Shown here: piece by piece, positions 5,579-47,083 of the stretch | How positions within the stretch are numbered: position 1 is the first letter of the stretch | Layout: each line of letters begins with the position of its first letter | DNA from: Nitrospirota bacterium | GTDB lineage: Bacteria > Nitrospirota > Nitrospiria > Nitrospirales > NS-4 | Direction: 5' to 3' | Length of the DNA: 47,331 nucleotides | Assembly (NCBI GenBank): GCA_005877565.1 | Contig: VBOK01000077.1 | Location: forward strand, 1 to 47,331 | The notes under the pieces: model-generated | The model's database searches: none | What the model saw: only the letters and a program-made list of their open reading frames with translations | What the model was told of the DNA's origin: nothing | Translations under genes and position numbers: made by a program

Positions 5579-6871
5579 CCGGTCGGCGATCCGCTCGACT
5601 TTGACCTTGGATACGCGCCGATCCCCGAGATCCACCACGGTAAACTTGTAGTCCCCGTGGTAGAAAACCTCGCCGCCGCGCGGGAGCCCCTGGATCTGGT
5701 AGGTGATGAACCCGCCGAGCGTCTCGTAGTCCGGCGATGCGGGGATCGGCAGCCCGTATTCCGACACGAGGTCCTTGACCGGCATCGAAGCGTCGACCAG
5801 GATCGCGCCGTCCTTGAGGCGTTCCACCGGCTTCTCTTCGGTGTCGTACTCGTCCTGGATTTCGCCGACGATCTCCTCAATCAGGTCCTCCAGCGTGACC
5901 AGCCCCTCGACGCTGCCGTACTCGTTGACCACGATCGCCATGTGGATGCGGCGGCGCTGCATCTCTTTCAGTAACACGCTGACCTTCATGGCTTCGGGAA
6001 CGTAATAGACGGGATGCAGCAACTCTTTAAGGTTCAATGGCTTGCCTGCTGCGACCTGACTCAAGAGGTCTTTCTGGTAGAGGATGCCGAGCATTTCGTT
6101 GAGGCCCTTCCGGTACACCGGGTAGCGGGAGAACTTGTTCTCGTCGATGTACTTCAGCAGGTCCGGAGTCGGGGTGTCGATCTGGATGGCGCACATCTTC
6201 GGGCGACGGATCATCACTTCCTTCACCGACATGTCGGTGAACTCAAACACACTGTGGATCAGCTCCTGCTCGGTCCTGTCGAAGACGCCCTTCTCGCGGC
6301 CTTCCTGCATGAGCAGGTTGATTTCTTCCGCGGAGATAAAGACCTTCTCCCCCTGGGCGGCCTTGCCGAGCACGCGCAAAACGCCTCGGCTGGACATGGC
6401 GAGGGGACGAATGCCCCAGGCCGCCACGCGGGCGAACCATTCCAGGGGACGCGCCGCAAACAGCGCCAGGCGCTCGGGGTTTTTGAGCGCCAGTATCTTG
6501 GGGACGAGTTCGCCCAGCACGAGCGAGAAGTACGAGATGATGAGTACCACGATGCCAATCGAAATCGGTTCGGCCAAGGCCCGCACCAAAGCCACGGGTG
6601 CCGCCTCGAAGACAGGCTTCAGGTGGTCGATCGCGACCACGCCACCCATGGCAGCTGCCGAGGCGCCCGCGACCGTGATGCCGATCTGGGTGGTCGCCAG
6701 GAAACGTTCGGAGTCCTCCTGAAAGCCCTGGACGAGACGGGCCTTGGCGTTCTTCGCCTCGACCAGTTGTTTGATCCGACTGCGCCGCGTGTTGACGATG
6801 GCCAACTCGGCGCAGGCGAAGAAGCCGTTCAGGAGGATGAGGGCAGCAATGGTGATGAGTTCGACCCACAT
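5537..6871 (-). CDS. hemolysin/CNNM-family membrane protein (DUF21 + CBS pair + CorC_HlyC)
   Basis: The N-terminal multi-TM DUF21 region has NGFFACAELA. A CBS pair and a C-terminal transporter-associated domain follow. Its 3' end overlaps pabC by 42 nt, convergently. Confidence 0.8.
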   Translation of the reverse strand: MWVELITIAALILLNGFFACAELAIVNTRRSRIKQLVEAKNAKARLVQGFQEDSERFLATTQIGITVAGASAAAMGGVVAIDHLKPVFEAAPVALVRALAEPISIGIVVLIISYFSLVLGELVPKILALKNPERLALFAARPLEWFARVAAWGIRPLAMSSRGVLRVLGKAAQGEKVFISAEEINLLMQEGREKGVFDRTEQELIHSVFEFTDMSVKEVMIRRPKMCAIQIDTPTPDLLKYIDENKFSRYPVYRKGLNEMLGILYQKDLLSQVAAGKPLNLKELLHPVYYVPEAMKVSVLLKEMQRRRIHMAIVVNEYGSVEGLVTLEDLIEEIVGEIQDEYDTEEKPVERLKDGAILVDASMPVKDLVSEYGLPIPASPDYETLGGFITYQIQGLPRGGEVFYHGDYKFTVVDLGDRRVSKVKVERIADRSTAGKEPTKTVPK

Positions 6872-10632: not shown

Positions 10633-12423
10633 ATGCCCCGCCTAGCCCCGTTCGGTCGGCTCCTTCCCTATCTCCGGCCGTACCGCCTCCGCATGGCTGC
10701 GGCCGCGCTGCTCGTCATGGGCGCGGCCGGCATCAACCTCAGCATGCTCTGGGTCATCCGGCGGCTCGTGGACACGGTCCTCGTCCAGAGAGATGCCGCC
10801 GCGCTGAACACCGCCATCGCCGAACTGGGCGGGCTGTTCCTCCTCCAAGGGCTCCTCATCATGGGCCACAGTTACCTGACGGCCTCGGCCGGCCAGCGCA
10901 TCATGGCCGACTTCCGGACGCACCTCTTCACTCACCTGCAGAGTCTCTCTCTGGGATTTTTTGCGCGACGTCGGACCGGCGAACTGATATCGCGGCTCAT
11001 GAACGACGTGGGCGCGCTGCAGACCGCCCTGACGGAAGTCCCGATCGACCTCGCGAAACAGGTCGTGACGCTGGTCGGCGGGCTCGCCATCCTGTTTGTC
11101 ATGAACTGGCGTTTGTGCCTGCTGATTCTGCTCCTCCTCCCGGCCATCGTGCTGATCGCCCGCTTCTTCGGCCGGCGACTCAAGGCGCTTTCCACTGGCA
11201 TCCAGGACGAGACCGCGCGCGCCTCGACGATTCTGGAGGAGGTGCTTTCCGGCATCCGCATCGTCAAGTCCTTCGTACGGGAAGATTACGAGCGGGCCCG
11301 GTTCGGCACGCAGGTTCACCGCACCCTGGACATCGTCCTCAGGCGGGCGCGGATCATGGCGATCTTCGTGCCGACGATCACCTTCGCCACCTTCGCCGCC
11401 GCGGCGGCAGTCCTCTGGTACGGCGGGTCCCAGGTCATCCGCGGGACGATGAGCCCGGGGGACCTGATCGCGTTCGTGCTCTATGCCGGCCTACTGATCG
11501 GACCCTTCGGGACCTTCGCACGCCTCTTCTCCCACGTCAAGGAAGCCCAAGGCGCGCTTGCGCGCGTGTTCGAGATCCTAGACACGCGGCCCGACGTGAC
11601 CGACGCGCCCAACGCCCGGCCGTTGCCGCCCGTGCGGGGCTACGTTGCCATGGAGGGTGTCAGCTTCTCCTACGACGGGCACACGACGGTGCTCTCGGAC
11701 CTTACTTTTAAGATCCGGCCGGGGGAAATGGTTGCGGTCGTCGGGCCGTCGGGATCCGGAAAGACCACCTTGATTAATCTCATCCACCGCTTCTACGACC
11801 CGGTGGCTGGCGTCGTCACCATCGACGACTATGACCTCAAGTCCGTCACCCTGCAGAGCCTCTACCAGCAGATCGCGTTGGTGCCGCAGGAGATGCACCT
11901 CTTCGGCGGCACCATCCGGGACAACATCCGCTACGGACGGGTCTCCGCCAGCGACGAGGAGATCGTGGCCGCCGCCCGGGCGGCCAACGCGCACGACTTC
12001 ATCACCGCCTTCCCGGATGGCTACGACACTCTTGTGGGGGAAAAGGGCGTCAACCTCTCGGGTGGACAGCGCCAGCGGATCGCCATTGCGCGGGCCGTGC
12101 TCAAGGACCCGCGGATCCTCATCCTGGACGAGGCCACCTCGTCGCTGGACAACGAATCGGAGGCACTGGTGCAGGACGCGCTGGACCGCCTGATGAAGGG
12201 ACGGACGACGTTCGTGGTCGCGCACCGGCTCAGCACAATCCAGAAGGCCGACCGGATCCTCGTGCTGGACAAGGGCCGGCTCGTCGAAGAGGGCACGCAC
12301 GCCATCCTCCTCGACAGGAAAGGCTTGTACTACCATCTGTACACGTTGGGCCTGGTTGAGAGCGAACCGCCTGTCACCCTGAGCAGCGCGAAGGGTCTAG
12401 ATTCTTCGCGGAGCCTGTCCTGA
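10633..12423 (+). CDS. ABC transporter, fused permease/ATPase, MsbA-like exporter
   Basis: Six-TM ABC_membrane domain, Walker A GPSGSGKTT, signature LSGGQRQRIAIAR and Walker B ILILDEATS. The last 17 codons and the stop lie inside a REP-like repeat. Confidence 0.9.
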   Translation: MPRLAPFGRLLPYLRPYRLRMAAAALLVMGAAGINLSMLWVIRRLVDTVLVQRDAAALNTAIAELGGLFLLQGLLIMGHSYLTASAGQRIMADFRTHLFTHLQSLSLGFFARRRTGELISRLMNDVGALQTALTEVPIDLAKQVVTLVGGLAILFVMNWRLCLLILLLLPAIVLIARFFGRRLKALSTGIQDETARASTILEEVLSGIRIVKSFVREDYERARFGTQVHRTLDIVLRRARIMAIFVPTITFATFAAAAAVLWYGGSQVIRGTMSPGDLIAFVLYAGLLIGPFGTFARLFSHVKEAQGALARVFEILDTRPDVTDAPNARPLPPVRGYVAMEGVSFSYDGHTTVLSDLTFKIRPGEMVAVVGPSGSGKTTLINLIHRFYDPVAGVVTIDDYDLKSVTLQSLYQQIALVPQEMHLFGGTIRDNIRYGRVSASDEEIVAAARAANAHDFITAFPDGYDTLVGEKGVNLSGGQRQRIAIARAVLKDPRILILDEATSSLDNESEALVQDALDRLMKGRTTFVVAHRLSTIQKADRILVLDKGRLVEEGTHAILLDRKGLYYHLYTLGLVESEPPVTLSSAKGLDSSRSLS

Positions 12424-12482
12424 GCGAACAACTGAGATGCTTCGCTTCGCTCAGCATGACAAGCGAAGGGCTCAGAATGACC
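12373..12482. repeat. cluster of REP-like palindromic units (forward units followed by two inverted units)
   Basis: GTCACCCTGAGCAGCGCGAAGGGTC and GTCCTGAGCGAAC are followed by inverted GCTTCGCTTCGCTCAGCATGAC and AAGCGAAGGGCTCAGAATGAC. The same unit recurs at 35901-35912, 38286-38310 and 44118-44188. Confidence 0.8.
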
Positions 12483-15691: not shown

Positions 15692-17251
15692 ATGCTGAAA
15701 CTCGCCCTCCTCGATATCGGCAGCAACTCCATCCACATGGTCCTGACGGAGATCCAGCCGGACCTCTCTTACAAGATTCTGGACCGGATCAAGGATGTGC
15801 CACGCCTGGGTGAGGAGACCTTCCAAACCGGGCAGTTCTCGCCTGACGCCATCGCCAAGGGGATCGAGGTGGTTCGGACCTTCACCACCCTGGCTCGCAA
15901 CCGCGGCTTCACGCGAGTCGAGGCTGTCGCTACCAGCGCTGTCCGCGAAGCGGCCAACGGCGGCGACCTGATCGAGGCCATCGAGCGGGAAACGGGCATC
16001 CGTGTCCGCGTGGTCACGGGCCTGGAAGAAGCTCGTCTGATCTATCTAGGCGTCCGACAGAGCATGGATTTCGGCGACCGCAATGTACTGATCGTGGATA
16101 TCGGCGGCGGCTCCGTCGAGCTGATCGTGGGCAACCGAACCAAGCCGCTTCACACAGCCAGTCTCAAGCTCGGTGCGATCCGGATCAACGATCTCTATTT
16201 GAAGAAAAACCCATCGTCCTCTGACGCCTTGAAACGGCTGGAAAAGGCCGTGGAGACCGAACTCAAGCCCGCGCTGCCACGTTTCGAAAAGGTCGGATTC
16301 GACGAGCTAGTCGGCACTTCCGGCATGATCAGCAACCTGGCAGAGGTCATGCACCTGCAGAAGACGGGGCGGCCCCTTCCCCAGCTCAACTTGGCGCGGT
16401 TCTCCCTCAAGGACATCATGGCAGTTGAAAAACTCTTGCGCGAGATGTCGCCCAAACGCCGGAACGAGATTCCCGGTCTCGACCCGAAACGGGCCGATCT
16501 GTTGTTGCCGGCCACCATCGTGCTCCGCACCATCATGGAGCGGCTGGACATCGGCGAGCTGACCGTCAGCGACAAGGCAATCCGGGAGGGTCTCCTCTAC
16601 GACTTTATCGCGCGCCATCGAGACGGAATCCAGGCGGAGCAGGACATCCCTAACGTCCGGCGTCGGAACGTCATGCACCTGGCCCGAAGCTGCCAATACG
16701 ACGCCGTCCACGCGCATCACGTCGCGAAGCTCTGTCTCCAACTTTTCGATCAGACGGCATCCATCCATAAGATGGGTGAGCGGGAGCGGGAATGGCTGGA
16801 GTACGCTGCGATCCTGCACGACATCGGCTATCTCATCAACTCACGCCAGCATCACAAGCATACCTACTACGTCATCAAGAACAGCGACCTGGCCGGGTTC
16901 ACGGTCGACGAGATCGAGATGATCGCGAACGTGGCCCGCTACCACCGCCGGGCGCTCCCCGAGGATGATCATCGAAACCTTAAAGACCTTGATGCTAAGC
17001 ATCTGGAAACATTGACAGTTCTTGGAGGGATCCTCCGCCTTACCGATGCTCTGGACCGGAGCCACTTCGGTGTCATACAATCAATGCGCTGCACTGCCAC
17101 CCCAGAGGCCTTGGAGATCGACCTCACGGCCACCGATGATGCGGCGCTGGAGCTCTGGGCGGCACGCGACCGCAAGGAACTGCTGGCTCAGGGACTCGAT
17201 CGAGCCATCCGATTGACGAAAGCGACCGCGCCCGGGGAATTCGACGCATGA
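15692..17251 (+). CDS. ppx: Ppx/GppA-family exopolyphosphatase / pppGpp phosphohydrolase with C-terminal HD domain
   Basis: ASKHA-fold motifs LLDIGSNSIHMV and IVDIGGGSVEL are present. The HD region has ILHDIGY..RQHHKH. Confidence 0.85.
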   Translation: MLKLALLDIGSNSIHMVLTEIQPDLSYKILDRIKDVPRLGEETFQTGQFSPDAIAKGIEVVRTFTTLARNRGFTRVEAVATSAVREAANGGDLIEAIERETGIRVRVVTGLEEARLIYLGVRQSMDFGDRNVLIVDIGGGSVELIVGNRTKPLHTASLKLGAIRINDLYLKKNPSSSDALKRLEKAVETELKPALPRFEKVGFDELVGTSGMISNLAEVMHLQKTGRPLPQLNLARFSLKDIMAVEKLLREMSPKRRNEIPGLDPKRADLLLPATIVLRTIMERLDIGELTVSDKAIREGLLYDFIARHRDGIQAEQDIPNVRRRNVMHLARSCQYDAVHAHHVAKLCLQLFDQTASIHKMGEREREWLEYAAILHDIGYLINSRQHHKHTYYVIKNSDLAGFTVDEIEMIANVARYHRRALPEDDHRNLKDLDAKHLETLTVLGGILRLTDALDRSHFGVIQSMRCTATPEALEIDLTATDDAALELWAARDRKELLAQGLDRAIRLTKATAPGEFDA

Positions 17252-18030
17252 CCACGCCGGCCAAAGCTCCGTTCACCGTGCCGCACCCTTATCCGGGCAA
17301 GCTCATCGTCGTGGAAGGGATCGACGGCTCGGGCAAGAGCACCCAGCTCAGCCTGATGCGCAAGTGGCTGGACTCTCAGGGCAACAACGTCTTCTTTACT
17401 GAATGGAACTCCTCTGAGTTGGTCAAGGAGACAACCCGGCGCGGCAAGAAGACGAAGGTCCTGACGCCGCTGACATTCAGCCTTTTGCACGCGACCGATT
17501 TTGCCAACCGCCTGTACCATCAGATCCTGCCCCCGCTCAAGGCCGGCATGATCGTCCTGGCCGACCGCTACATGTACACAGCCTTCGCACGAGACGCGGT
17601 ACGGGGTGTCTCGCATAGTTGGGTGCGCCACCTGTACAGCTTCGCTGTCAAGCCCGATCTGGCCTTCTACTTCCGCGTGCCGATCGAAGTTTCCCTGTCG
17701 CGCCTCCTTGAAGGCACGCGCGCGGAGCTGAAGTACTACGAGGCCGGGATGGACCTCGGGCTGAGCACGAATATCGTGGAAAGCTTCAAGATCTTTCAGT
17801 CGCGGGTGTTGAATGAGTACGACAAGATCGTGGACGAATTCGGCCTGACTGTCATGGACGCCACGCTGGAAATCGACGAGCAACAGGAGCAGGTCCGCGA
17901 GATCGTCTCGAAGACTCTGGCTTCCTACAAACCGAAACGGGGTTCGCATGCAAAGCGAGAAGCGCTATTTTGGCGAAGGTTTACCATACCAGAGTCTGAA
18001 GGGGCTGAAAGGGAAGCTGATCGCCATTGA
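17248..18030 (+). CDS. thymidylate kinase-like P-loop kinase, paralog 1
   Basis: VVEGIDGSGKST is an intact Walker A and LADRYMYTAFA is a DRY motif. The start overlaps the ppx stop (ATGA). Confidence 0.7.
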   Translation: MTTPAKAPFTVPHPYPGKLIVVEGIDGSGKSTQLSLMRKWLDSQGNNVFFTEWNSSELVKETTRRGKKTKVLTPLTFSLLHATDFANRLYHQILPPLKAGMIVLADRYMYTAFARDAVRGVSHSWVRHLYSFAVKPDLAFYFRVPIEVSLSRLLEGTRAELKYYEAGMDLGLSTNIVESFKIFQSRVLNEYDKIVDEFGLTVMDATLEIDEQQEQVREIVSKTLASYKPKRGSHAKREALFWRRFTIPESEGAEREADRH

Positions 18031-18781
18031 GGGCCCGGACGGCGTCGGGCGCTCGACCCACATCGAATCAATCCAGGAGTGGCTGGAGGTGCAGGGCTAC
18101 GGGGTCCTCACCACCGGATGGACCCGCTCGGAGCTCATGTCGAAGGCCATCACGAGCGCCAAGCAGGGCAACATCCTGGACCCCTGGAGCTACAGCCTGC
18201 TATACGCCACAGACTTTGCGGACCGGCTGGAACACCAAATCATTCCGGCGTTGCGCTCGGGCTTCGTGGTCCTCTCCGATCGCTACATCTACACCGCCTT
18301 CGCCCGTAACGTCGTCCGTGGGTGCGACCGCGAGTGGATCCGCGGCGTCTTCGGTTTCGCGATCGTGCCGGATCTCGCCTGCTATCTCCGGATTGACGCG
18401 GACACGCTGGCGCTCCGGGTCATCGAATCCAAGGGCATGACCTACTGGGAATCCGGCATGGACATGCGGCTGGGGGCAGACCTCTACGACAGTTTCAAGA
18501 AATACCAGGGCATGATCATCGAGGAGTCCGACAAGATGGCCGAGGAGTTCGGCTTCCAGATCGTGGACGCCCGGCGCCCGCCGGAGGAAATTCAGGAGGC
18601 CCTGCGAGCTCGCATCCTGCCCATCCTCAAGGAAAGCCGCACGAAGCGTATCAGTAAAGCCGCTGCGGAAAAGGCCGCCGCCGAGAAAGCTGCGGCCGAA
18701 AAGCTTGCGGAAAAGGGCGCTGAAAAATCCAGCGAGAAAGCCAGTGAGCCCGCCCCCGTCAAGGAACCCGCTACCACCTGA
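17948..18781 (+). CDS. thymidylate kinase-like paralog 2 with Walker A Lys-to-Arg change and an (AAEK)n tail
   Basis: AIEGPDGVGRST, LSDRYIYTAFA, and the C-terminal AAEKAAAEKAAAEKLAEKGAEKSSEK. It overlaps paralog 1 by 83 nt. Confidence 0.65.
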   Translation: MQSEKRYFGEGLPYQSLKGLKGKLIAIEGPDGVGRSTHIESIQEWLEVQGYGVLTTGWTRSELMSKAITSAKQGNILDPWSYSLLYATDFADRLEHQIIPALRSGFVVLSDRYIYTAFARNVVRGCDREWIRGVFGFAIVPDLACYLRIDADTLALRVIESKGMTYWESGMDMRLGADLYDSFKKYQGMIIEESDKMAEEFGFQIVDARRPPEEIQEALRARILPILKESRTKRISKAAAEKAAAEKAAAEKLAEKGAEKSSEKASEPAPVKEPATT

Positions 18782-32546: not shown

Positions 32547-33461
32547 CTACAAGGGCGAGAGCCAGGAGGCATGCTTGGCGTCACGCCCACTGACGATGTC
32601 GAAGAAGGCAGTTTGCAAATCGCGGGTGATGGGGCCCGGCTTGCCGGTGCCCACGGTGCGGTCGTCCACCTCGCGGATCGGCGTCAGCTCGGCGGCCGTG
32701 CCGGTCATGAACACCTCATCGGCGATGTAGAGTTCGTCGCGTGTGAACCGTTCTTCCACCACCGTCAGGCCGCGCTCACGGGCGAGCTGCATGATCGAGT
32801 TTCGCGTGATCCCTTCGAGGATCGAGGTCAGCGGCGTGGTCTTCACGACGCCGTTGCGCACCAGGAAGATGTTCTCCCCCGTGCCCTCGGAGACGTAGCC
32901 CTCGGGGTCCAGCAGGATCGCCTCATCGTACCCGCCGGCCTTCACTTCGCGCTTGGCCATGATGGAGTTAACGTAGTAGCCGGCGATCTTGGCCCGCGTC
33001 AGGCTGACGTTGACGTGGTGGCGGGTGAAGGAGGACACCTTCGCTCGGATGCCGTTCTTCAAGCCTTCCTCGCCGAGGTAGGCGCCCCACGGCCACGCCG
33101 CGATCGCCACCCGGATCGGGTTCTCGGGCACGTAGAGCCCCATGTCGCCATAGCCCACGAAGACGATGGGCCGGATGTAGCATTCATCGAGCCGGTTCAC
33201 GCGGACGGTCTCCCGGATCGCATCCGCGATCTCCTTCTTTCCGTATGGAATCTGCAACAGGCAGATGTGGGCCGACGCAAACAGCCGGTCCACGTGCTCG
33301 TTGAGGCGGAAGATGGCCGAGCCCTGCTTGCCCTTGTAGCACCGGATGCCTTCGAAGGCGGACAGGCCATAGTGGAGGCTGTGCGTGAGGACGTGGACCT
33401 GGGCGTCCTTCCAGGGCACCAACTTCCCGTCCAGCCAGATCTTCTCGGATTCCTTCAGCAC
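32547..33461 (-). CDS. ilvE: branched-chain amino acid aminotransferase
   Basis: [33 protein letters not shown] and GITRNS. GTG 33461 gives the usual length of about 304 aa. Confidence 0.9.
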
Positions 33462-33603
33462 GAGCGCATGATAGCAGCGGCAGCGGGCGCAGAAACGTCC
33501 GGCGCGCAAGCCGCTGGCCGGAAAGAGGCCTCACCCGGCTGCAGTTGACCCGTCGAAGACTGACGACCGCCGACTGGCCGAAATCTCGGAAGCGCTGGAC
33601 ATC

Positions 33604-34254: not shown

Positions 34255-34569
34255 ATGTACGCGATTGTTGAGACAGGCGGGAAACAGTATCGGGCGACGC
34301 AAGGCACTGTTTTACAAGTGGAAAAGCTGGACGGCGCGGTGGGCTCCACGGTCACACTGGACAAGGTGTTGCTGATCTCCGGCGAGTGGACCACCAAGGT
34401 CGGCACCCCCGTCATTCCCAAGGCGAAGGTCACCGGCGAGATCGTGGCCCAGGGCCGGACTCCCAAAATCATCGTGTTCAAGAAAAAGCGCCGCAAGGCG
34501 TATCGCCGGAGTCGCGGGCACCGGCAGTCGTTCACCAGCGTGAAGATCACCGGAATTTCTGAGGGCTAG
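34255..34569 (+). CDS. rplU: 50S ribosomal protein L21
   Basis: [14 protein letters not shown]. Confidence 0.95.
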
Positions 34570-34571
34570 TC

Positions 34572-34853
34572 ATGGCGCACAAAAAAGGACAGGGTTCGTG
34601 CCGGAACGGGCGGGACAGCAACCCGCAGTATCTCGGCGTGAAATGCTTCAGCGGCGAGGTCGTGCCGGGGGGGAGCATCCTCGTCCGCCAGCGCGGCACG
34701 CGGATTCACCCGGGCTTCAACGTCGGCAGAGGCAAGGACGACACGCTGTACGCCAAGATCCCCGGCGTCGTGAAGTACGAAGGCCCGAAGGAACGGCGTC
34801 GGGTCAGCGTGTATCCGGTTGCGTCCCAAGCCCAGGCCGCCGCAGCCTCCTAA
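34572..34853 (+). CDS. rpmA: 50S ribosomal protein L27
   Basis: [22 protein letters not shown]...[10 protein letters not shown]. Confidence 0.95.
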
Positions 34854-34877
34854 CCTCTTTTCTCTTTTGTCACCCGG

Positions 34878-34915
34878 CCTCTTGTTCCGACGAAGGAGCA
34901 AGGGGCTTTTTTATT
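34878..34915 (+). terminator. Rho-independent terminator after rpmA
   Basis: CCTCTTGTTCC-gacgaa-GGAGCAAGGGG is an 11 bp stem including 2 GU pairs. It is followed by CTTTTTTATT. Confidence 0.75.
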
Positions 34916-34938: not shown

Positions 34939-35562
34939 ATGTTCACGACTGCGGAAGTCCGGTGGTTCTTTGAAGGCCCGATTCCTGACGAAATAGAACA
35001 ATGGTTCTGCAGCAGCCTGGCGCTCAACGCGGCGCCCCGCGAGGACCACTATCTGCTGTTTCCGGCCCCTTTGGGCCTGGGGCTCAAGTTGCGCGAAGGG
35101 CGGCTGGAGATCAAGTATCTGGTTGAGTCAGTGGGAATCCACACCTTCATGGCGGACGTCATCGGCACTGTCCAGGTATGGAACAAGGACGCCTATGGCG
35201 AACCGGCGGTCAAGGAATTCGAGCGGCTGCAGACAAGCGCGCCCCATCTCTGGATCGCGGTGAGAAAGAAACGGACGCTCCGGAGGTTCTCCCTCGAAGG
35301 CACCAGCATCGTTGAAGTTCCAGCCGACAGGGTCTTCCTTCGTGATGGCTGCAACGCCGAGTTCACAAAGATCACGGTGGATGGGTTGGCGTACTGGAGC
35401 TTCAACTTCGAGGCGTACGGGAATCCCGTGCGGGTTGCGGACTACTTGCAAAGAGTGGCGATGCACGTCCTGAAAGAGAATCAGCGGCCATCTTATTCCT
35501 TCCCCGCCCCGAACTCCTGCTCGTACCCAGAGTGGTTGTGGCGATTGGCGAAGAAGCGATGA
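34939..35562 (+). CDS. hypothetical protein, possibly CYTH-like (triphosphate tunnel) fold
   Basis: 207 aa. The N-terminal AEVRWFF resembles the CYTH ExExK/R start. Alternating charged beta-strand patterns follow (LKLREGRLEIKY, VRKKRTLRRF). The assignment is weak. Confidence 0.55.
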   Translation: MFTTAEVRWFFEGPIPDEIEQWFCSSLALNAAPREDHYLLFPAPLGLGLKLREGRLEIKYLVESVGIHTFMADVIGTVQVWNKDAYGEPAVKEFERLQTSAPHLWIAVRKKRTLRRFSLEGTSIVEVPADRVFLRDGCNAEFTKITVDGLAYWSFNFEAYGNPVRVADYLQRVAMHVLKENQRPSYSFPAPNSCSYPEWLWRLAKKR

Positions 35563-35578
35563 GTCACGCAACTCACTG

Positions 35579-35767
35579 CTATTGGTGGGGCAATTTCTTT
35601 TCTAACTGCTCCCCGCGCGGGGTGTCCTTGGGCTCGTAGGGACTGGGCTGGTACTCATACACCGAGCGCAGCACCAGGACGATCCCGGCACCGATGAGGG
35701 AGACCACCAGCATGACGATCACCCATTTCCCATTGCGGCGGTACCAAGCCCGTAGCGAACGTGGCAT
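35579..35767 (-). CDS. small single-pass membrane protein
   Basis: MPRSLRAWYRRNGKWVIVMLVVSLIGAGIVLVL... is 62 aa from ATG 35767. Confidence 0.4.
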   Translation of the reverse strand: MPRSLRAWYRRNGKWVIVMLVVSLIGAGIVLVLRSVYEYQPSPYEPKDTPRGEQLEKKLPHQ

Positions 35768-35826
35768 TTCCAGCGCCTCTCCCCCGCCACGCCGGCTCAC
35801 CACGAACCGGCGCGACGGCAGCTCAC

Positions 35827-35901: not shown

Positions 35902-35944
35902 TTCAGCATGACAAGGTAAGACGAAATGGACTTCGTTGATCAGA
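35902..35944 (+). repeat. left direct repeat: copy of the obg upstream region plus the first 6 codons
   Basis: TTCAGCATGACAAG-GTAAGACG-AAATGGACTTCGTTGATCAGA matches 38300-38360 at 37 of 43 positions, with one 18-nt indel. The ATG at 35926 opens an 18-codon remnant, MDFVDQKDRKRAERQKKD. Confidence 0.75.
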
Positions 35945-36014
35945 AAGACAGAAAAAGGGCAGAACGACAGAAAAAGGATTAGATTCATTAAGGGAGCTTG
36001 CGGTAAGCTAACTC

Positions 36015-37067
36015 ATGCTTGAAAATTGGTTCTCTAAAAATCCTTCCAACCGACCTAAGCCCCTAGATCAGCACGGGGGGCTGTCGAATATCATCGATAG
36101 AATAAAGGATCAATTCGAGCGCATCATCCATTCAGATCACATCAAATTTCTCTCCCAACTTTCTGTTGGCTACTACATCGTGCTAATCGGTGTTACCGGA
36201 ATACTTTTATACACTGGATATCGCCTCGGACAATCGGGCAATCGGGCTTTGCCGACAAGTACTGCTGTTCTCAGTGAAAGTAGCGGAAAGGTCACTAAAC
36301 TTGAAGCGGACTTAAGCTTAGTGAAGAGTGCGCTCCAAGAACGCATCAAGTCATTCGAAGGCTCGTTAAAAGAAAGGGAAGCTCAAATCAAGGAACACGA
36401 AAATGTCATCTCCTCTTTGCGCAATGAGATCAAAGAGCTGCAAAGCAAACTCAGCGCCGAACAAAACAAGAACGCTGAACTATTAATTCAGTCAGGTCCT
36501 TCAGAAACAACGATAAGCGAGTTACAAAAAGCACGATTAAGTCTGCCAAAGCCATTGCGCCACAAAGGCTTCCAAATGCAATTGAGCCCCATCATCTCGC
36601 CAAAGGGATACCTCATCTGGGCGCCTGAACATGTGACGGAAGATGGCTTTTATATAGACGGAACCCATTATGCATTATTCAAATGCCTTCAAAAGATTGC
36701 GCCAATGGATTTGCTAGGGGAAGTGGAACGGAAAAACCTATTTTTCGCAATAACTGTTGGTGATAAGGTTCTTTCACCCGTACCTTACTTATACATGCTT
36801 CCACTCGAAGAGGGTAAACATAAGATAAAGATAGAACCTCTTTCCGGGTCAGCAGAGAATAATTCCAAAGAAACAGTGGTCAAGCTGATGGCAAGGCAAG
36901 TCGAATTTATCGAGATCGATAGTATTGCTGTGCTGAGTGAAGCGGGAGCATTTCGCGTCAAGCTCAAAACATTTGATCAGGAAAGTACTGTCCGGAGGAT
37001 TTCTAAAGTGCTCGAAACCATGCACGTTGATAACGATTGCCTCTTGGAGGTCCTGACAACCAGATAG
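36015..37067 (+). CDS. orphan membrane-anchored coiled-coil protein
   Basis: 350 aa with strongly AT-biased codons. TM helix LSVGYYIVLIGVTGILLYTGY. Heptad-rich region KLEADLSLVKSALQERIKSFEGSLKEREAQIKEHENVISSLRNEIKELQSKL. The C-terminal domain of about 170 aa is unrecognised. Confidence 0.65.
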   Translation: MLENWFSKNPSNRPKPLDQHGGLSNIIDRIKDQFERIIHSDHIKFLSQLSVGYYIVLIGVTGILLYTGYRLGQSGNRALPTSTAVLSESSGKVTKLEADLSLVKSALQERIKSFEGSLKEREAQIKEHENVISSLRNEIKELQSKLSAEQNKNAELLIQSGPSETTISELQKARLSLPKPLRHKGFQMQLSPIISPKGYLIWAPEHVTEDGFYIDGTHYALFKCLQKIAPMDLLGEVERKNLFFAITVGDKVLSPVPYLYMLPLEEGKHKIKIEPLSGSAENNSKETVVKLMARQVEFIEIDSIAVLSEAGAFRVKLKTFDQESTVRRISKVLETMHVDNDCLLEVLTTR

Positions 37068-37123
37068 CTGCTCACCCCGTACCTGCCCGCTCCCTATCCC
37101 TGGAGAAAGGACAAAGAAGTTAT

Positions 37124-37621
37124 ATGGCTTACAAGAAAATTGTTATGCTGCATGACAAGAACATTGCGCTGGTCGCTCACGACAATAAGAAACTGGACCT
37201 GGTGGAATGGGCCAAATACAACCGCGATCTCTTGGCACACCACAAAGTGTATGCGACAGGTACCACCGGCGAGATCCTGGAACGCGAACTGGGCTTCAAA
37301 ATCACGCGATTTCAAAGCGGTCCCCTGGGCGGGGACCAGCAAATCGGCGCCAAGATCGTCGCCGACGAGATCAATTTTCTCATCTTTTTCTGGGATCCGC
37401 TCGAACCCATGCCGCATGACCCGGATGTCAAGGCCCTCCTGCGCATGGCCGTGGTGTGGAATATCCCCATCGCCTGCAATCGGGCCTCCGCGGATTTCAT
37501 GATCTCCTCCCCCCTCATGGATGGAAAGTATGACCGCCTGATACCTGACTATGAAGGCTATCACACCAGGAAAATAGACAGAGCGAAGGCGCAGGATGAG
37601 GCATCAGGCACCATTTCCTAA
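37124..37621 (+). CDS. mgsA: methylglyoxal synthase
   Basis: IALVAHDNKK, ATGTTG, SGPLGGDQQIGA and DPLEPMPHDPDVKALLR. Confidence 0.85.
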   Translation: MAYKKIVMLHDKNIALVAHDNKKLDLVEWAKYNRDLLAHHKVYATGTTGEILERELGFKITRFQSGPLGGDQQIGAKIVADEINFLIFFWDPLEPMPHDPDVKALLRMAVVWNIPIACNRASADFMISSPLMDGKYDRLIPDYEGYHTRKIDRAKAQDEASGTIS

Positions 37622-37791
37622 AGTAAGATGGTCGATTCGCTTCGCCCTCTCTGGGCGCCTGTTCCGTGCCACCCAAGCTGTATCAGGTTAGATACTTGAT
37701 GGCATCTTTTTAGATACGCGCCGCCCTCTCACCGACACTCGCGCGTCGCGCGAACCTCCTGTAATTTCTGACTCGCCAGTTGCTCTGTCTG

Positions 37792-38014
37792 ATGGGCAAA
37801 GTTGTTGCTTACCCGATAGTTCTCCATATGCAGCTCTGTCCAGGGACGGAAGGCAAAGATGACTGTGGCGCCTATCTCCGCAAATGCACGAAGTGCGGCT
37901 CGAAAGGCACAAGCCAAACCATATAGGTGTGGGTACTGTCACCGAGCTACCGGGGCACCTGTTGCTCTTCAAATGCAACGGGTCACCAGCTCAGACGGCT
38001 TCCCTATTTTGTGA
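37792..38014 (+). pseudogene. possible frameshifted small zinc-ribbon ORF
   Basis: Frame 1 reads MGKVVAYPIVLHMQLCPGTEGKDDCGAYLRKCTKCGSKGTSQTI and stops at 37924. The +1 frame continues PYRCGYCHRATGAPVALQMQRVTSSDGFPIL to 38014. Joining them gives CxxC...CxxC. Confidence 0.25.
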
Positions 38015-38163
38015 AAGGATAACGCGCAACGAAGTGAGGACGGTGGGCCGCTAAGCTTGCAGGACCCGCTTCCCTTCCTCGAAATCGCAAGCTCTCTTCA
38101 CCCCTCCGGTTTGCTTTGTCAGTCCTTGGGTTTTATACTGTCTGCACATTTAGTTGGATGAGC

Positions 38164-38280
38164 GGGTGGCGCCGAGCGGGCGCCCGGGCGGAGCGGAAGG
38201 CGCCTGCAACCGAGTCGGCGGGGCTGCGCCGGTGAAAGGCGCATGAGCACGTCTGGGCTGCTCGGCGACAGGACCCGCGA
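38164..38280 (+). repeat. unclassified 117-nt GC-rich structured repeat, copy 1 (candidate ncRNA or mobile-element end)
   Basis: About 87% identical to the reverse complement of 46969-47083. It contains the perfect palindrome CGGGCGCCCG. An 8-10 bp closing helix keeps pairing through two compensatory changes. Confidence 0.8.
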
Positions 38281-38285
38281 ATTGA

Positions 38286-38310
38286 GATTCTTCGCTGCGC
38301 TCAGAATGAC
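38286..38310. repeat. single REP-like unit (inverted orientation)
   Basis: GATTCTTCGCTGCGCTCAGAATGAC is the reverse complement of GTCATTCTGAGCGCAGCGAAGAATC. Confidence 0.75.
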
Positions 38311-38360
38311 AAGAATAGGCGGAATGGCAGGGTAAGACGCTGTGGATTTCGTTGATCAGA
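38300..38360 (+). repeat. right direct repeat (functional obg start region)
   Basis: CTCAGAATGACAAG-[18 nt]-GTAAGACG-CTGTGGATTTCGTTGATCAGA is the partner of 35902-35944. Confidence 0.75.
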
Positions 38361-39367
38361 TCAAAATCTACGTGAAGGCCGGGGACGGCGGGAACGGGTG
38401 CCGGAGCTTCCGCCGGGAGAAACACGTCCCGCACGGTGGCCCCGACGGCGGCGACGGCGGGAACGGCGGCGACGTCATCTTGGAAGCCACGGAGCGCCTG
38501 TCCACCCTGCTCGACCTCCAGTTCCAGCAACACCATGTCGCGAAGGACGGCGACAACGGCGAAGGCTCAAACCGCCACGGCCGCTCCGCGCCGCCGCACA
38601 TCATTCGCGTGCCCGTGGGCACCATCGCGAAGGACGTCGCGACAGACGAGACCCTCGCCGATTTAACCGAGGACGGCCAGCACGCGATCGTGGCGCAGGG
38701 CGGACGCGGTGGACGCGGCAACGCGCATTTCGCCACCCCGACCAATCGCGTACCGACCCGAAGCGATCCCGGCACACCCGGCGAGGAGCGCTGGCTTCAA
38801 CTGGAATTGAAGCTCCTGGCGGACGTCGGTCTGGTGGGCTACCCCAACGCCGGCAAGTCCACTCTGATCGCAGCCATCTCGCACGCGCGCCCCAAGATCG
38901 CTGACTATCCGTTCACGACCCTGGCGCCGAACCTCGGCGTCGTCTCCGTGGACGAGGACCAGAGCTTCGTCGTGGCGGACATCCCGGGCCTCATCGAGGG
39001 CGCCCATGCAGGGAAGGGCCTCGGCTTTCAGTTCCTGCGTCACATCGAGCGCACGTCATATCTCATGTTCCTGGTGGACATCTCTGAGAGCGTGACGGTG
39101 GACCCTGTCGAAAGCCTGCAGACCCTGCGCAAGGAACTGAAGCTGTACAATCCGGATCTTGCCAAGAAGCCGTACGCGGTCGCCGCGACGAAACTCGACA
39201 TCGCGGGTGAAGGGAAGCATCTGAAGAAACTCGAGATGGACTGCAAGAAGCGCCACCTGCGGCTCTTTCCGATCTCGGCCGTCGCCGGCGTCGGCCTGAA
39301 GCCGTTGATCCGCCATCTCGGTTCGCAGGTCGCGAAGCTACGGCAACCCCTGAAAGCGAGTGTGTAA
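38342..39367 (+). CDS. obg: GTPase Obg/CgtA
   Basis: GTG start. MDFVDQIKIYVKAGDGGNG, G1 GYPNAGKST, DIPGLIEGA. Confidence 0.95.
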   Translation: MDFVDQIKIYVKAGDGGNGCRSFRREKHVPHGGPDGGDGGNGGDVILEATERLSTLLDLQFQQHHVAKDGDNGEGSNRHGRSAPPHIIRVPVGTIAKDVATDETLADLTEDGQHAIVAQGGRGGRGNAHFATPTNRVPTRSDPGTPGEERWLQLELKLLADVGLVGYPNAGKSTLIAAISHARPKIADYPFTTLAPNLGVVSVDEDQSFVVADIPGLIEGAHAGKGLGFQFLRHIERTSYLMFLVDISESVTVDPVESLQTLRKELKLYNPDLAKKPYAVAATKLDIAGEGKHLKKLEMDCKKRHLRLFPISAVAGVGLKPLIRHLGSQVAKLRQPLKASV

Positions 39368-42836: not shown

Positions 42837-44076
42837 ATGCGCTTCTTCCTATGGGTGTTCACGCTGATCGCTGCCATCGTGGCGGCCGTCTACTTCAGCG
42901 ACCTCAACCCCGATCCGATCACGCTCCGGCTATCGCAGCAAACGTCGACCGAAGTCACCCCGCTCTACCTCGTGCTCTTTTGCATCGCTGGCGGCGCGCT
43001 GACAGTCGTGTTGCTGTTCGGCCTGCGCGAGGTCCGCGCCCTCATCCTCAACTGGCGCTCTACCCAGCGGCGCAAGCGCGAGGAGAAGCTCCAGAGCTAT
43101 TACAGCAGCGGCGTGCTGGCCTCGCTCTCCCGTCGGACCAGCGAGGCGATCTCCCAGCTGCAGAAGGTGCTGGCGTTGGACCCCACCCACACCCGTGCCC
43201 TGGTCTCGCTGGGCAACATCTTCCGCCGGGAGAAACATTACAACGAGGCGGTCCGGCTGCACCTGAGGGCCCGGTCGCTCGAAGAAGGCAATCTGGAGGT
43301 CCTCTTGTCCCTAGCCCGCGACCTCGAAGACGCCAAGCGCTACGACGAGGCGATCCAGACATTGGAGGACGTGCTCAAACATGACAGCACCAACCCGACC
43401 GCCCTCTACCGCATCAGAGACATCCACATCCGGAACGGCAGATGGAAAGCGGCCCATGCGGTCCAGGAACGGCTCCTGAAGGCAGGCCTGTCCGACCACG
43501 AAGTCCGCGTCGAGATCCAGGTCATGACGGGGCTGAAATATGAGGTCGGGCGACAGTACTCGGAACGCGGCGATCTCGACCTCGCCAGACGCTACTTCAG
43601 GAATGCCATCAAGCTGGACAAAGGGTTCCTGCCCGCGCGGATCGGCTTCGGCGAGCTGCTCATTCGGGAAGGCAAGCTGAAGCTGGCAGCGGCTCGGCAA
43701 GCTCTACTACAGGCTGGAGATGATCGACGACGCCTTCGATCTGCTCTCGACGCTGGAGGGTCTCCAAGACCCCACCGGCGCCCTGCATAAGATCATGGCC
43801 TGCCTCTACATCCGCAAGGGGGACACAGAATCGGCGCTGATAATCCTGCAGGAAGCCCTCAACCGGGCACGGCCCGTCGGGGCCCCGTTCGCCTGCACAG
43901 CCTGTCACTACGAAGCGCGGGAATGGAGCGGGCGCTGCCAGGCCTGCGGGCACTGGAACACGCTGGCTCACGTGCTCCCTTCGTTCAGCGACGCAGGCCA
44001 GCCCCGCGAGAGCGTGCGCGAGCCCGTTCAGCCCCACCCCTATCCGGGCATCGCCTCGCCGTTCGAGCCTGTGTAG
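42837..44076 (+). pseudogene. lapB: LapB/YciM-like TPR protein with C-terminal rubredoxin-type zinc finger, split by a +1 frameshift near 43681-43720
   Basis: Frame A (42837-43790) gives two N-terminal TM helices plus TPR repeats, then degenerates after ...LIREGKLKLAAA. Frame B (open from 43681) gives LGKLYYRLEMIDDAFDLL...FACTACHYEAREWSGRCQACGHWNT. Confidence 0.7.
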
Positions 44077-44117
44077 ACGGGCTGGCCTTTTCCCCCAAAA
44101 TCAGTAACAATGCGCGT

Positions 44118-44188
44118 GTCATTCTGAGCAAAGCGAAGAATCTCATGTGTGAGGCAGTGTCTAGACCCTTCACTTCGTTCAGGGTGAC
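44118..44188. repeat. REP-like inverted pair forming a hairpin
   Basis: GTCATTCTGAGCAAAGCGAAGAATCT - 19 nt - AGACCCTTCACTTCGTTCAGGGTGAC. Confidence 0.8.
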
Positions 44189-44211
44189 AACTTTTGAGGA
44201 TTGACCCGAGC

Positions 44212-46968: not shown

Positions 46969-47083
46969 TCGCGGGTCCTGTCGGCGAACAGCCCTGACGT
47001 GCTCAGATCCTTTCGCCGTCGCAGCCCCGCAGACTCGGCTGTAGGCTCTTCCGCTCCGCCCGGGCGCCCGTTCGCCGCCACCC
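46969..47083 (-). repeat. unclassified GC-rich structured repeat, copy 2 (inverted relative to copy 1)
   Basis: Its reverse complement, GGGTGGCGGCGAACGGGCGCCCGGGCGGAGCGGAAGAGCC...GACAGGACCCGCGA, aligns end to end with 38164-38280. Confidence 0.8.

Follow-up and report, generated by a model that had tools for sequence, protein, structure and literature searches.

Does the interval between rpmA and obg in a soil Nitrospirota genome hold a mobile island that integrated at the obg start and left direct repeats at both ends, or does the duplicated gene start have another origin? The window, which is the whole 47,331-nt stretch analysed here, comes from a metagenome-assembled genome of soil Nitrospirota. 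The order rplU-rpmA-obg, named in the initial annotation as the expected arrangement, is indeed present in most of 80 more distant genomes, with an rpmA-obg gap of usually 50-250 nt; this genome scan with Obg (common motif PKIADYPF; best listed match 68% identical) informs the general arrangement and not the close relatives. In the window, as had been noted, rpmA ends at 34853 before a terminator and obg starts at 38342, and the 2.4 kb ending in the obg start had been interpreted as a site-specifically integrated island that regenerated the 5' end of its target. Close relatives were obtained via protein search, contig look-ups and a metagenome scan with orf350; these comparison loci (numbered with the prefix L) are short metagenome contigs in which repeat assembly may be wrong and lineage is assigned from few genes. 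The features of the interval are as follows.

34876-34907, plus strand: terminator-like hairpin after rpmA, a 13-bp stem followed by TTTTTATT (T run)
34939-35562, plus strand: orf207, clade-specific gene with no family match, adjoining rpmA and outside the repeat-bounded segment
35579-35803, minus strand: orf74, small predicted membrane protein, kept beside orf350 in the clade
35905-35944, plus strand: left copy, putative relic of the obg 5' module, with one REP-tail unit CAGCATGACAAG, the GGTAAGACG spacer, ATG, and obg codons 2-6 plus one base
35926-35982, plus strand: ORF of 18 codons plus stop, MDFVDQKDRKRAERQKKD, opened by the pseudo-start and read from the window sequence
35941-35977, plus strand: two tandem 19-nt units of REP-tail type, CAGAAAGACAGAAAAAGG and CAGAACGACAGAAAAAGG, with a third member at 38302-38319 in the obg leader
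36015-37067, plus strand: orf350, low-GC orphan gene restricted to the clade (GC 44%, GC3 0.47)
37102-38100, plus strand: probably separately acquired segment of mgsA plus about 480 nt, with a Cys-rich ORF and non-coding DNA, patchily distributed in relatives
37124-37621, plus strand: mgsA, methylglyoxal synthase, matching an NCBIfam equivalog and Pfam MGS
37828-37926, plus strand: 32-aa Cys-rich ORF within the 37102-38100 segment
38111-38140, plus strand: conserved promoter-like 30-mer of obg, TTGCTT-17-TATACT, with presumed promoter function
38162-38286, plus strand: GC-rich, MITE-like hairpin element with inverted ends in the obg leader, predicted to fold as one long hairpin
38284-38341, plus strand: REP-like half unit GAGATTCTTCGCTGCGCTCAGAATGACAAG, degenerate second tail unit and GGTAAGACG spacer, belonging to a repeat family
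38324-38360, plus strand: right repeat copy, extending into obg codons 1-6
38342-39367, plus strand: obg (GTPase ObgE/CgtA), intact, GTG start, with NCBIfam equivalog models matching residues 1-335

The obg gene is regarded as intact because the NCBIfam ObgE equivalog models match from residue 1 (NF008955, 481 bits over residues 1-335); Pfam GTP1_OBG covers residues 4-158. On the rpmA side, orf207 follows rpmA in relatives down to 83% Obg identity, and the likely promoter of orf74 (TTGTAA-16-TATACT, 35868-35841 on the minus strand) lies within a block conserved in all relatives.

Positions 35908-35944 and 38324-38360, 2416 nt apart, are equal at 31 of 37 bases (84%) in an ungapped alignment that includes obg codons 1-6. 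The pair scored 44 against a top score of 23 among 100 shuffles. Moreover, the pattern GGTAAGACGNNNTGGAYTTCGTTGATCAGA gave two exact matches where 0.00 were expected (100 shuffles), and the 13-mer TTCGTTGATCAGA was found solely in the left and right copies. The duplicated obg start is thus confirmed, and the two copies are true paralogues of the obg 5' end. The initial annotation had aligned 35902-35944 with an 18-nt indel; the repeat stands, but the gap is an alternative register only, as the left copy contains a single REP-tail unit where the right one contains two in tandem. It had also read the point of divergence as the edge of an att core, whereas the copies part where a REP-tail-type unit begins (CAGA) and not at foreign DNA. 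A unit resembling the tandem 19-mers, CAGAATGACAGAAAAGG, is present in the obg leader of L121. The left copy does open a dead-end ORF of 18 codons, as had been described.

The AT-rich orphan ORF noticed earlier between the repeats is orf350, compositionally foreign DNA flanked by both copies, with a GC3 of 0.47 versus 0.75-0.90 in the neighbouring genes. Its product is predicted to have a single transmembrane helix at the N-terminus, followed by a coiled coil (about residues 91-157) and a C-terminal part rich in beta structure. Searches against Pfam, NCBIfam, PADLOC and PHROGs returned coiled-coil noise only, and the AlphaFold model (pLDDT 38) was unusable. Just 26 homologue clusters were found, all at least 57% identical; homologues outside the clade were not found, nor was a donor. 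A 317-aa gene of L088 was considered as a homologue and rejected (25% identity, no real alignment). The order orf74(-)-orf350-(mgsA)-obg is kept in all 27 of 27 orf350-bearing metagenome loci and in all loci reached via Obg homologues of 87-100% identity that have the upstream region on the contig, and among about 35 related metagenome loci orf350 always lies between orf74 and obg or mgsA. L117 (Obg 92%) is unreadable at this position, its contig ending in an IS3 element upstream of the promoter. orf350 is missing only from relatives whose Obg identity is 83% or lower, and in these the site is occupied by other cargo. Neither orf350 nor the left junction was found in viral contigs, and no orf350 homologue was found at any other site. 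Third-codon-position identity to the window in the same loci is 79-87% for orf350, 70-80% for obg and 77-81% for proB; orf350 has diverged at synonymous sites like the backbone genes, which points to vertical descent with fast protein change.

The mgsA segment has a different distribution. The mgsA product matches NF003559 (215.4 bits; cut-off 84) and TIGR00160 (188.3 bits; cut-off 146.9) over its full length. The segment is absent from L084, L085, L094, L095, L097, L098 and L100-L105, in which the DNA matches the window to about 37100 and resumes at about 38101; it is present in L106, L108 and L114, and in L119 within a different neighbourhood. Third-position identity of mgsA is 80-91% regardless of backbone identity (65-99%). 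To L119 it reaches 80%, above obg (65%) and proB (74%), and within the species it is below that of the flanking genes. A recent transfer of mgsA was considered and rejected, as this pattern suggests allele exchange, though it is not decisive. Direct repeats were searched for at the segment ends, yielding weak CCCT microhomology only. The small Cys-rich ORF, which had been taken for a broken zinc-ribbon gene, is shortened in frame and not broken. The mgsA segment seems to be a later, independent addition in the window's lineage.

Upstream of obg, the promoter 30-mer is nearly invariant in every relative whose Obg is 79% or more identical; elsewhere in the 1.44 Mb of loci searched it occurs only before orf350. 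The hairpin element (-87.7 kcal/mol, but a z-score of only -1.58 versus shuffles of this GC-rich sequence) occupies this site in some relatives and is missing from it in others, and it has copies before orf350 in L100, L102, L105 and L106; its end at 38261 has a related sequence at 46970 on the minus strand. Copies of the REP-like unit lie at 12441, 38291 and 44115 (minus strand), with 0 expected, and full REP units are found in the obg leaders of L092, L097 and L121. The leader is bare in L085, L098, L094 and L104, holds the hairpin element in L095 and L087 and the REP unit in L092 and L097, and holds both in the window. Such insertion polymorphism at one site among close relatives, together with several dispersed intergenic copies that also occur in many relatives' leaders and before orf350, is as expected of REP-like or MITE-like repeats. 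The GC-rich structured segment corresponds to no known RNA, since a Rfam scan of the whole window gave zero families at threshold. The hairpin element and the REP-like unit are therefore best regarded as small dispersed repeats that are gained and lost within the obg leader, the hairpin probably being a later, independent addition in the window's lineage.

The 2.4 kb is not one element: the distribution among relatives differs between orf350, the mgsA segment and the small repeats (hairpin and REP). Other cargo is seen upstream of obg in further relatives, including a response regulator followed by FAD-binding and alcohol-dehydrogenase genes up to a TPR gene in L088, a radical SAM gene in L120, PIN and alcohol-dehydrogenase genes in L121, the IS3 element in L117, a 163-aa gene in L096 and L100, and a LuxR-type gene with a 624-aa gene in L106 and L108. 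The rpmA-obg interval is best read as a long-standing variable region in one soil Nitrospirota clade, and its repeat-bounded 2.4 kb is not a single unit.

How the left copy varies among relatives bears directly on its origin. The pseudo-start is present in eight loci (window, L082, L090, L084, L098, L099, L101 and L104), whereas eight others carry the promoter 30-mer before orf350, with or without the hairpin element and REP unit; four loci have fragments of the obg 5' module there, and six have nothing. In L084, L098, L101 and L104, the similarity between left and right is only a stretch of 17-18 nt (identical in L101 and L104, but differing at two positions in L084 and L098), and the pseudo-start ORF stays open for 18 to 34 codons up to the ribosome-binding region of orf350. 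The H2 sequence TGGGATCAGAC was considered as a degenerate pseudo-start and rejected, being a better match to the third 19-mer unit of L084. Alleles of the pseudo-start and promoter-copy types share the same 32-nt upstream flank, GACAGAAAAGTAGCCTGTCCCCCTTCCTCACC. The pseudo-start alleles have common downstream 19-mers, and the promoter-type copies of L100, L102, L103, L105, L106 and L108 share the derived substitutions TTGAGATTTACACTG. Left-right similarity reaches about 30 nt upstream of the promoter in L100, and the promoter-type left copy of L105 aligns with the right copy of the window over about 200 columns, from promoter to REP unit. Upstream of obg, the GGTAAGACG spacer is confined to the species of the window. 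Both allele types are found within this species: the window, L082 and L090 carry the pseudo-start, but the left copy was not found, with 4 mismatches allowed, in the conspecific contigs L091, L092, L093 and L096, whose orf350 is 97-98% identical. L091 and L092 carry orf350-mgsA-obg although they have no left copy, and the contigs of L093 and L096 break off within orf350. None of the loci retains the left copy at full length, promoter and start included.

Several expectations of an integrated island were compared with these patterns. Direct repeats like those of a 5'-end-targeting island do exist (31/37 in the window, 17-18/18 in L101 and L104), obg is intact and the pseudo-start lies at the far end; the obg-proximal promoter is common to outgroups that lack orf350, and either copy may be the native one. 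The initial annotation had reported no integrase or recombinase gene, and in line with it neither of these and no transposase was found among 37 window ORFs scanned with Pfam and NCBIfam (all rpmA-obg ORFs and 30 more), and beside obg in relatives no recombinase was found apart from the unrelated IS3 transposase of L117. A fixed att site is contradicted by the conspecific contigs L091, L092, L093 and L096 that lack the left copy, two of which (L091 and L092) keep the cargo, and a short core by the other lineages in which a copy of the obg promoter stands before orf350 behind the same 32-nt flank. An empty site was not found within the clade: orf350 is carried by every relative that has a readable upstream region and an Obg identity of 87% or more. 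The situation that had been named in advance as contrary to an island, in which all relatives carry the segment with the same two repeat copies and no empty site, was largely encountered because relatives carry the segment and no empty-site variant was found, but the repeat copies are mosaic and not the same. Overall, reading the repeats as island borders is partly supported: recent integration of a mobile island is not upheld, while the label of a remnant is apt.

We therefore favour, with a probability of roughly 60%, the reading that the left repeat is a decayed fossil of an old duplicated obg 5' module in a variable region, the pieces of which diverged by lineage. In the ancestor of the orf350-carrying lineages, the whole obg 5' control module would have been doubled, so as to stand both before orf350 and before obg. 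It would have begun about 45 nt ahead of the promoter and run on through the promoter and the leader, REP-type units included, as far as the start codon and six codons. Selection would have preserved the copy next to obg, and the orf350-proximal copy would have decayed differently in each lineage, leaving one REP unit, spacer and start in the window and, elsewhere, the 18-nt start only, the promoter only with or without the hairpin element, or nothing. Alleles may then have been swapped among lineages through homologous recombination in the conserved flanks. The duplication could have arisen by single-crossover (Campbell-type) insertion of a circular DNA bearing orf350 and an obg 5' fragment, or by recombination or template switching between REP-tail units; neither route would need an element-encoded recombinase, and both are more likely than an integrase. 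The single ancestral full-length copy is proposed from overlapping fragments because no locus keeps it whole, and a similar mosaic could result from parallel gene conversions off the obg side. Today, the left copy would at most provide expression signals for orf350, either as a promoter copy or as an obg start driving a short upstream ORF, and the pseudo-start ORF may act as such an upstream ORF of orf350.

Alternatively, a small orf350 element may long ago have integrated site-specifically into obg codons 1-6 with a recombinase acting in trans or since lost, bringing its own obg promoter and 5' end, so that the repeats would be degenerate attL and attR of a now immobile element. The 17-18-nt stretch that flanks the cargo as the sole left-right similarity in four loci resembles a short att core, the cargo is low in GC, the tandem 19-mers adjoining the core can be read as arm-type sites, and the architecture is like that of islands replacing the 5' end of a target gene, as in dusA islands (PMC4482086). 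We nevertheless consider this unlikely: beyond the missing recombinase (bar the IS3 of L117), the confinement of orf350 to one site and its absence from viral contigs, the lack of an empty site and the conspecific strains that keep the cargo without the left copy, the duplicated unit spans the promoter and about 45 nt beyond, far above core size, and the supposed arm sites are REP-tail units that also occur in obg leaders.

It is also conceivable, though we rate it as quite unlikely, that orf350 has always been upstream of obg and that pieces of the obg 5' end were repeatedly copied before it by gene conversion or template switching between REP units and selected as a strong promoter or start, with no link to an insertion. 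Breakpoints at REP-type units fit such copying, as do the REP unit and species-specific GGTAAGACG spacer of the window's left copy and the upstream ORF, which is open in every pseudo-start lineage that was read through. However, the derived substitutions that promoter-type left copies share across lineages, and the downstream 19-mers common to the pseudo-start alleles, both speak for a shared ancient origin and not for recurrent events; moreover, the low GC of orf350 would still need a foreign origin.

A more speculative scenario, to which we give little credence, is that the first six codons of obg serve as the attachment core of tiny integrase-less cassettes. Each would consist of the 18-bp core and a single cargo gene, orf350 for instance, together with arm-like 19-nt repeats in tandem. 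Their insertion would depend on a recombinase from another place in these Nitrospirota genomes, and the cassette would supply a new obg promoter and start codon, keeping the essential gene alive; the present state would be their fossil. Finally, chance or shared repeat-family membership, with two REP-like units happening to lie near two start codons, has a negligible probability and appears already refuted: the first 13-15 nt of the earlier alignment (GTTCAGCATGACAAG) do belong to a dispersed REP-like family, whose copy at 12441 contains TCAGCATGACAAG exactly, but the 18 nt of obg coding sequence lie outside that family and match at 16-18 of 18 positions in eight loci, and the shuffles gave no chance match to the 30-nt pattern.

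The decayed-module reading carries a caution, as direct repeats of a gene start around low-GC cargo mimic a fresh integration when one sequence is viewed, and comparison with relatives shows the duplication to be ancient, eroded and set within a variable region. The promoter and start of the gene for an essential ribosome-associated GTPase would have been copied before an orphan neighbour and then eroded by lineage, with small REP-type repeats marking the breakpoints. The finding opens no long-standing question; it makes rpmA-obg a defined locus for tracking gene gain and loss in uncultured soil Nitrospirota.

SXT/R391 elements in prfC are one example of islands that integrate into, and replace, the 5' end of a protein gene. 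The dusA-associated islands are another (PMC4482086). As in dusA-type islands, the locus has direct repeats with one copy in the 5' end of the target gene, an intact target gene, a displaced 5' fragment at the far end and cargo of foreign composition between. In contrast to them, no integrase and no empty site were found here, the cargo has become fixed in the clade and passes on vertically, strains of one species differ in the far-end copy, and the duplicated unit covers promoter and leader, at least about 130 nt versus a core of about 21 bp. A literature search found no report of obg as an integration target. In Campbell-type insertion, direct repeats of a chromosomal segment lie on both sides of the insert, and the inner ends of the two copies mark the limits of the homology segment. 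Our locus similarly has an insert between direct chromosomal repeats whose copy ends would bound such a segment, but the donor circle is hypothetical and the repeats are degenerate and partly deleted. REP/BIME- and MITE-type repeats are small dispersed units in intergenic regions. The units described here are similarly short, predicted to be palindromic or hairpin-forming, and intergenic, with several copies per genome, a presence that varies among close relatives and rearrangement breakpoints at the units; unlike those repeats, this family has no match to a curated model (Rfam, window) and no associated transposase was seen. Chromosomal hot spots are sites of gene gain and loss between conserved core genes. 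The rpmA-obg interval resembles them in holding unrelated cargo within the same flanks (rpmA or ilvE; obg-proB-proA) and in having alleles common to several lineages, but differs in that orf350 comes with a duplicated control module of the neighbouring essential gene.

In most of 80 more distant genomes the order is rplU-rpmA-obg and only a short gap, usually of 50-250 nt, separates rpmA from obg; the initial annotation was right to call this arrangement widely conserved. In the window, a 47.3-kb contig from a Nitrospirota MAG, the rpmA-obg region is arranged as follows:

32547-33509, minus strand: ilvE
34255-34569, plus strand: rplU
34572-34853, plus strand: rpmA
34876-34907, plus strand: terminator-like hairpin
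34939-35562, plus strand: orf207, a clade-specific neighbour
35579-35803, minus strand: orf74, conserved beside orf350 in the clade
36015-37067, plus strand: orf350, a low-GC orphan gene
37124-37621, plus strand: mgsA
37622-38341: non-coding DNA, 720 nt
38342-39367, plus strand: obg, GTG start
3' of obg, plus strand: proB and proA

The GC content is 44-47% at ~35.8-37.2 kb, compared with roughly 60-68% in the flanking genes, and GC3 is 0.47 in orf350 and 0.65 in mgsA, compared with 0.75-0.90 in most neighbouring genes. About 2.4 kb of this interval had been interpreted as a site-specifically integrated island bounded by repeats, albeit without an integrase or recombinase gene; indeed, no integrase, recombinase or transposase was found among the 37 scanned ORFs of the window.

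The duplication of the obg start is real. The ungapped match of 35908-35944 to 38324-38360 covers 31 of 37 positions with an alignment score of 44, whereas shuffled sequences reached at most 23, and a 30-nt degenerate pattern comprising the spacer and codons 1-6 matched at the two repeat sites only, with 0.00 matches expected. The left copy, which lies before orf350, opens an 18-codon ORF (35926-35982), as had been described. The 18-nt indel of the earlier alignment arises because REP-tail units (short dispersed-repeat units) stand two in tandem in the window's obg leader and singly in the left copy. In the left copy, TTCGTTGATCAG is succeeded by a tandem pair of 19-nt units, CAGAAAGACAGAAAAAGG and then CAGAACGACAGAAAAAGG, which are similar to the REP-tail units of obg leaders (38302-38319 in the window; CAGAATGACAGAAAAGG in the related Nitrospirota locus L121). 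Therefore, the two copies part where a repeat unit begins, and the point formerly taken for the edge of an att core is not an edge of foreign DNA.

The 30-mer TTGCTTTGTMAGTCCTTGGGTTTTATACTG 5' of obg is almost invariant in all relatives whose Obg is at least 79% identical, and may be a promoter (TTGCTT-17-TATACT). The stretch between it and the obg start codon varies among relatives, being only 6 nt long and probably leaderless in L088, short and bare in L085, L098, L094 and L104, and furnished with a GC-rich hairpin element with inverted ends in L095, L087, L118 and L119, with a REP-like unit in L092 (the window's species), L097 and L121, and with a hairpin element plus a REP half unit in the window (38162-38341). 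The obg leader is a hot spot for small repeats. The -10 box of L088/L089 (7980-8003; Obg 83% identical) is followed after 6 nt by the start codon of obg (TATACTGGTGCCATGG), suggesting a leaderless obg mRNA. The REP-like units form a dispersed family (GTCACCCTGAGC...GAAGGGTCTAGATTCTTCGCTNCGCTCAGAATGACA, with tandem tail units), which occurs in the window at 12370-12480 (copy at 12441), at 44100-44190 on the minus strand (copy at 44115) and at 38284-38313, as well as in the obg leaders of L092, L097 and L121.

The left copy is a fragment of a second obg 5' module (promoter, leader, start and codons to 6). Four types of sequence were found before orf350:

Sequence types before orf350 in the window and related loci
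Pseudo-start (ATGGAYTTYGTTGATCAG, then 19-mers): window, L082, L090, L084, L098, L099, L101, L104
Promoter copy (30-mer with or without hairpin element and REP unit): L085, L100, L102, L103, L105, L106, L108, L109
Fragment (partial hairpin element, REP pieces): L091, L092, L093, L096
Nothing recognisable: L094, L095, L097, L110, L116, L118

In 1.44 Mb of fetched loci, the 30-mer occurs nowhere other than 5' of obg or orf350. Pseudo-start and promoter-copy alleles have a 32-nt flank immediately upstream in common, the similarity between left and right copies in L100 reaches ~30 nt upstream of the promoter, and in L105 the alignment of the left copy to the right copy of the window, at obg itself, spans the promoter through the REP unit. 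The simplest reading is a single ancestral second copy, which would have begun ~45 nt before the promoter, ended at codon 6 and later been trimmed by differing internal deletions. Derived changes common to the promoter-type left copies, such as TACACT for TATACT, fit an old left copy no longer under selection. These data show two paralogous obg 5' modules around orf350, the distal one of which has decayed in a lineage-specific manner.

In four loci of the window's own species (L091, L092, L093 and L096; orf350 97-98% identical, and L092 obg 98% at the nucleotide level), the pseudo-start is absent even with four mismatches allowed. Instead, L096 and L092 carry a 163-aa gene with hairpin-element and REP-unit fragments before orf350; L091 and L092 retain orf350-mgsA-obg, and the L093 and L096 contigs end inside orf350. 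Both left-copy allele types are also present in a group with orf350 72-76% identical, and the alleles are therefore common to several lineages. On this comparison, the left copy is dispensable and polymorphic. It may supply expression signals to orf350; in all pseudo-start lineages that were read through, the short ORF from the pseudo-start remains open up to the ribosome-binding region of orf350.

Closer relatives were collected by looking up the contigs of Obg homologues 79-100% identical and by scanning metagenomes with an alignment of orf350; the scan yielded 27 loci. All orf350 homologues found have orf74 on one side and obg or mgsA on the other. In 5.8 billion proteins the family comprises only 26 clusters, all at least 57% identical and all from the window's clade, and none was found on viral contigs. 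The orf350 protein is 70-85% identical to those of L084, L085 and L094, with third-codon-position identities of 79-87% for orf350, 70-80% for obg and 77-81% for proB. As the value for orf350 is at least as high as those for obg and proB, the gene has descended with the backbone while its protein changed fast. Judged from these sequences, orf350 is no recent arrival but old at the rpmA-obg locus. Both orf350 and orf207 encode fast-changing proteins (70-85% aa identity) with synonymous-type sites conserved like those of obg and proB, which points to relaxed or diversifying selection.

In contrast, the mgsA segment is a separate piece. The DNA of L084, L085, L094, L097, L098 and L100-L105 matches the window from 34801 to ~37100 and again from ~38101, directly 5' of obg. 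As these relatives skip 37102-38100, this segment, in which non-coding DNA accompanies mgsA and a small Cys-rich ORF, is an addition. It is present in the window's species, L106, L108 and L114, and also in L119 (Obg 82% identical) in a different neighbourhood. Third-position identity of the segment to the window remains 80-91% whether the backbone is 65% or 99% alike, suggesting that mgsA alleles were exchanged between lineages. In L119, mgsA (5742-6218; 91% DNA identity to the window) lies between BrkB-like and DPBB/SPOR genes, 1.8 kb 5' of obg, with no rpmA within 8 kb. The window's Cys-rich ORF (37828-37926; 32 aa, MQLCPGTEGKDDCGAYLRKCTKCGSKGTSQTI) is 56 aa in the conspecific L082 (2071-2241); 72 nt lying between 16-nt direct repeats, or 24 codons in frame, are missing from the window's version. 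The ORF once described as a possible broken zinc ribbon is therefore shortened in frame and not broken.

Other genes also occur 5' of obg, and the rpmA-obg interval is a variable region in the window's clade:

L088: response regulator, orf217, FAD-binding genes, alcohol dehydrogenase, TPR gene
L120: radical SAM gene
L121: metK, ahcY, PIN-domain gene, alcohol dehydrogenase; no rpmA nearby
L117 (Obg 92% identical): IS3-family element (237-1432; HTH_Tnp_1 and rve ORFs), ~100 nt upstream of the obg promoter
L106, L108: LuxR-type regulator, 624-aa protein

Elsewhere in the window, a lapB-like TPR gene (42837-44073; 464-465 aa in relatives) lacks residues 281-337, with a frame change between 43676 and 43693; this reflects either pseudogenisation or faulty assembly. 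Two adjacent ORFs (17248-18030 and 17948-18781) both match the thymidylate kinase family.

The ~2.4 kb is thus composite, since 37102-38100 and the small repeats each have a history of their own. We infer that the obg 5' module was duplicated in a single event, at or near the appearance of orf350. If a circle with orf350 and an obg 5' fragment had been inserted by a single crossover, exactly the observed layout would result; alternatively, REP-tail units could have mediated the duplication through recombination or template switching. Overall, the locus is of modest interest, an example of ordinary genome plasticity in a lineage that has not been cultured. An ancient site-specific integration event retains some probability, although neither an empty site nor a second location of orf350 was found; what survives of the proposed island is at best such a very old event, several independent pieces having been wrongly joined as one element. 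While its long duplicated unit and missing integrase count against such an event and set the rpmA-obg locus apart from dusA-type islands, its layout would match theirs (PMC4482086).
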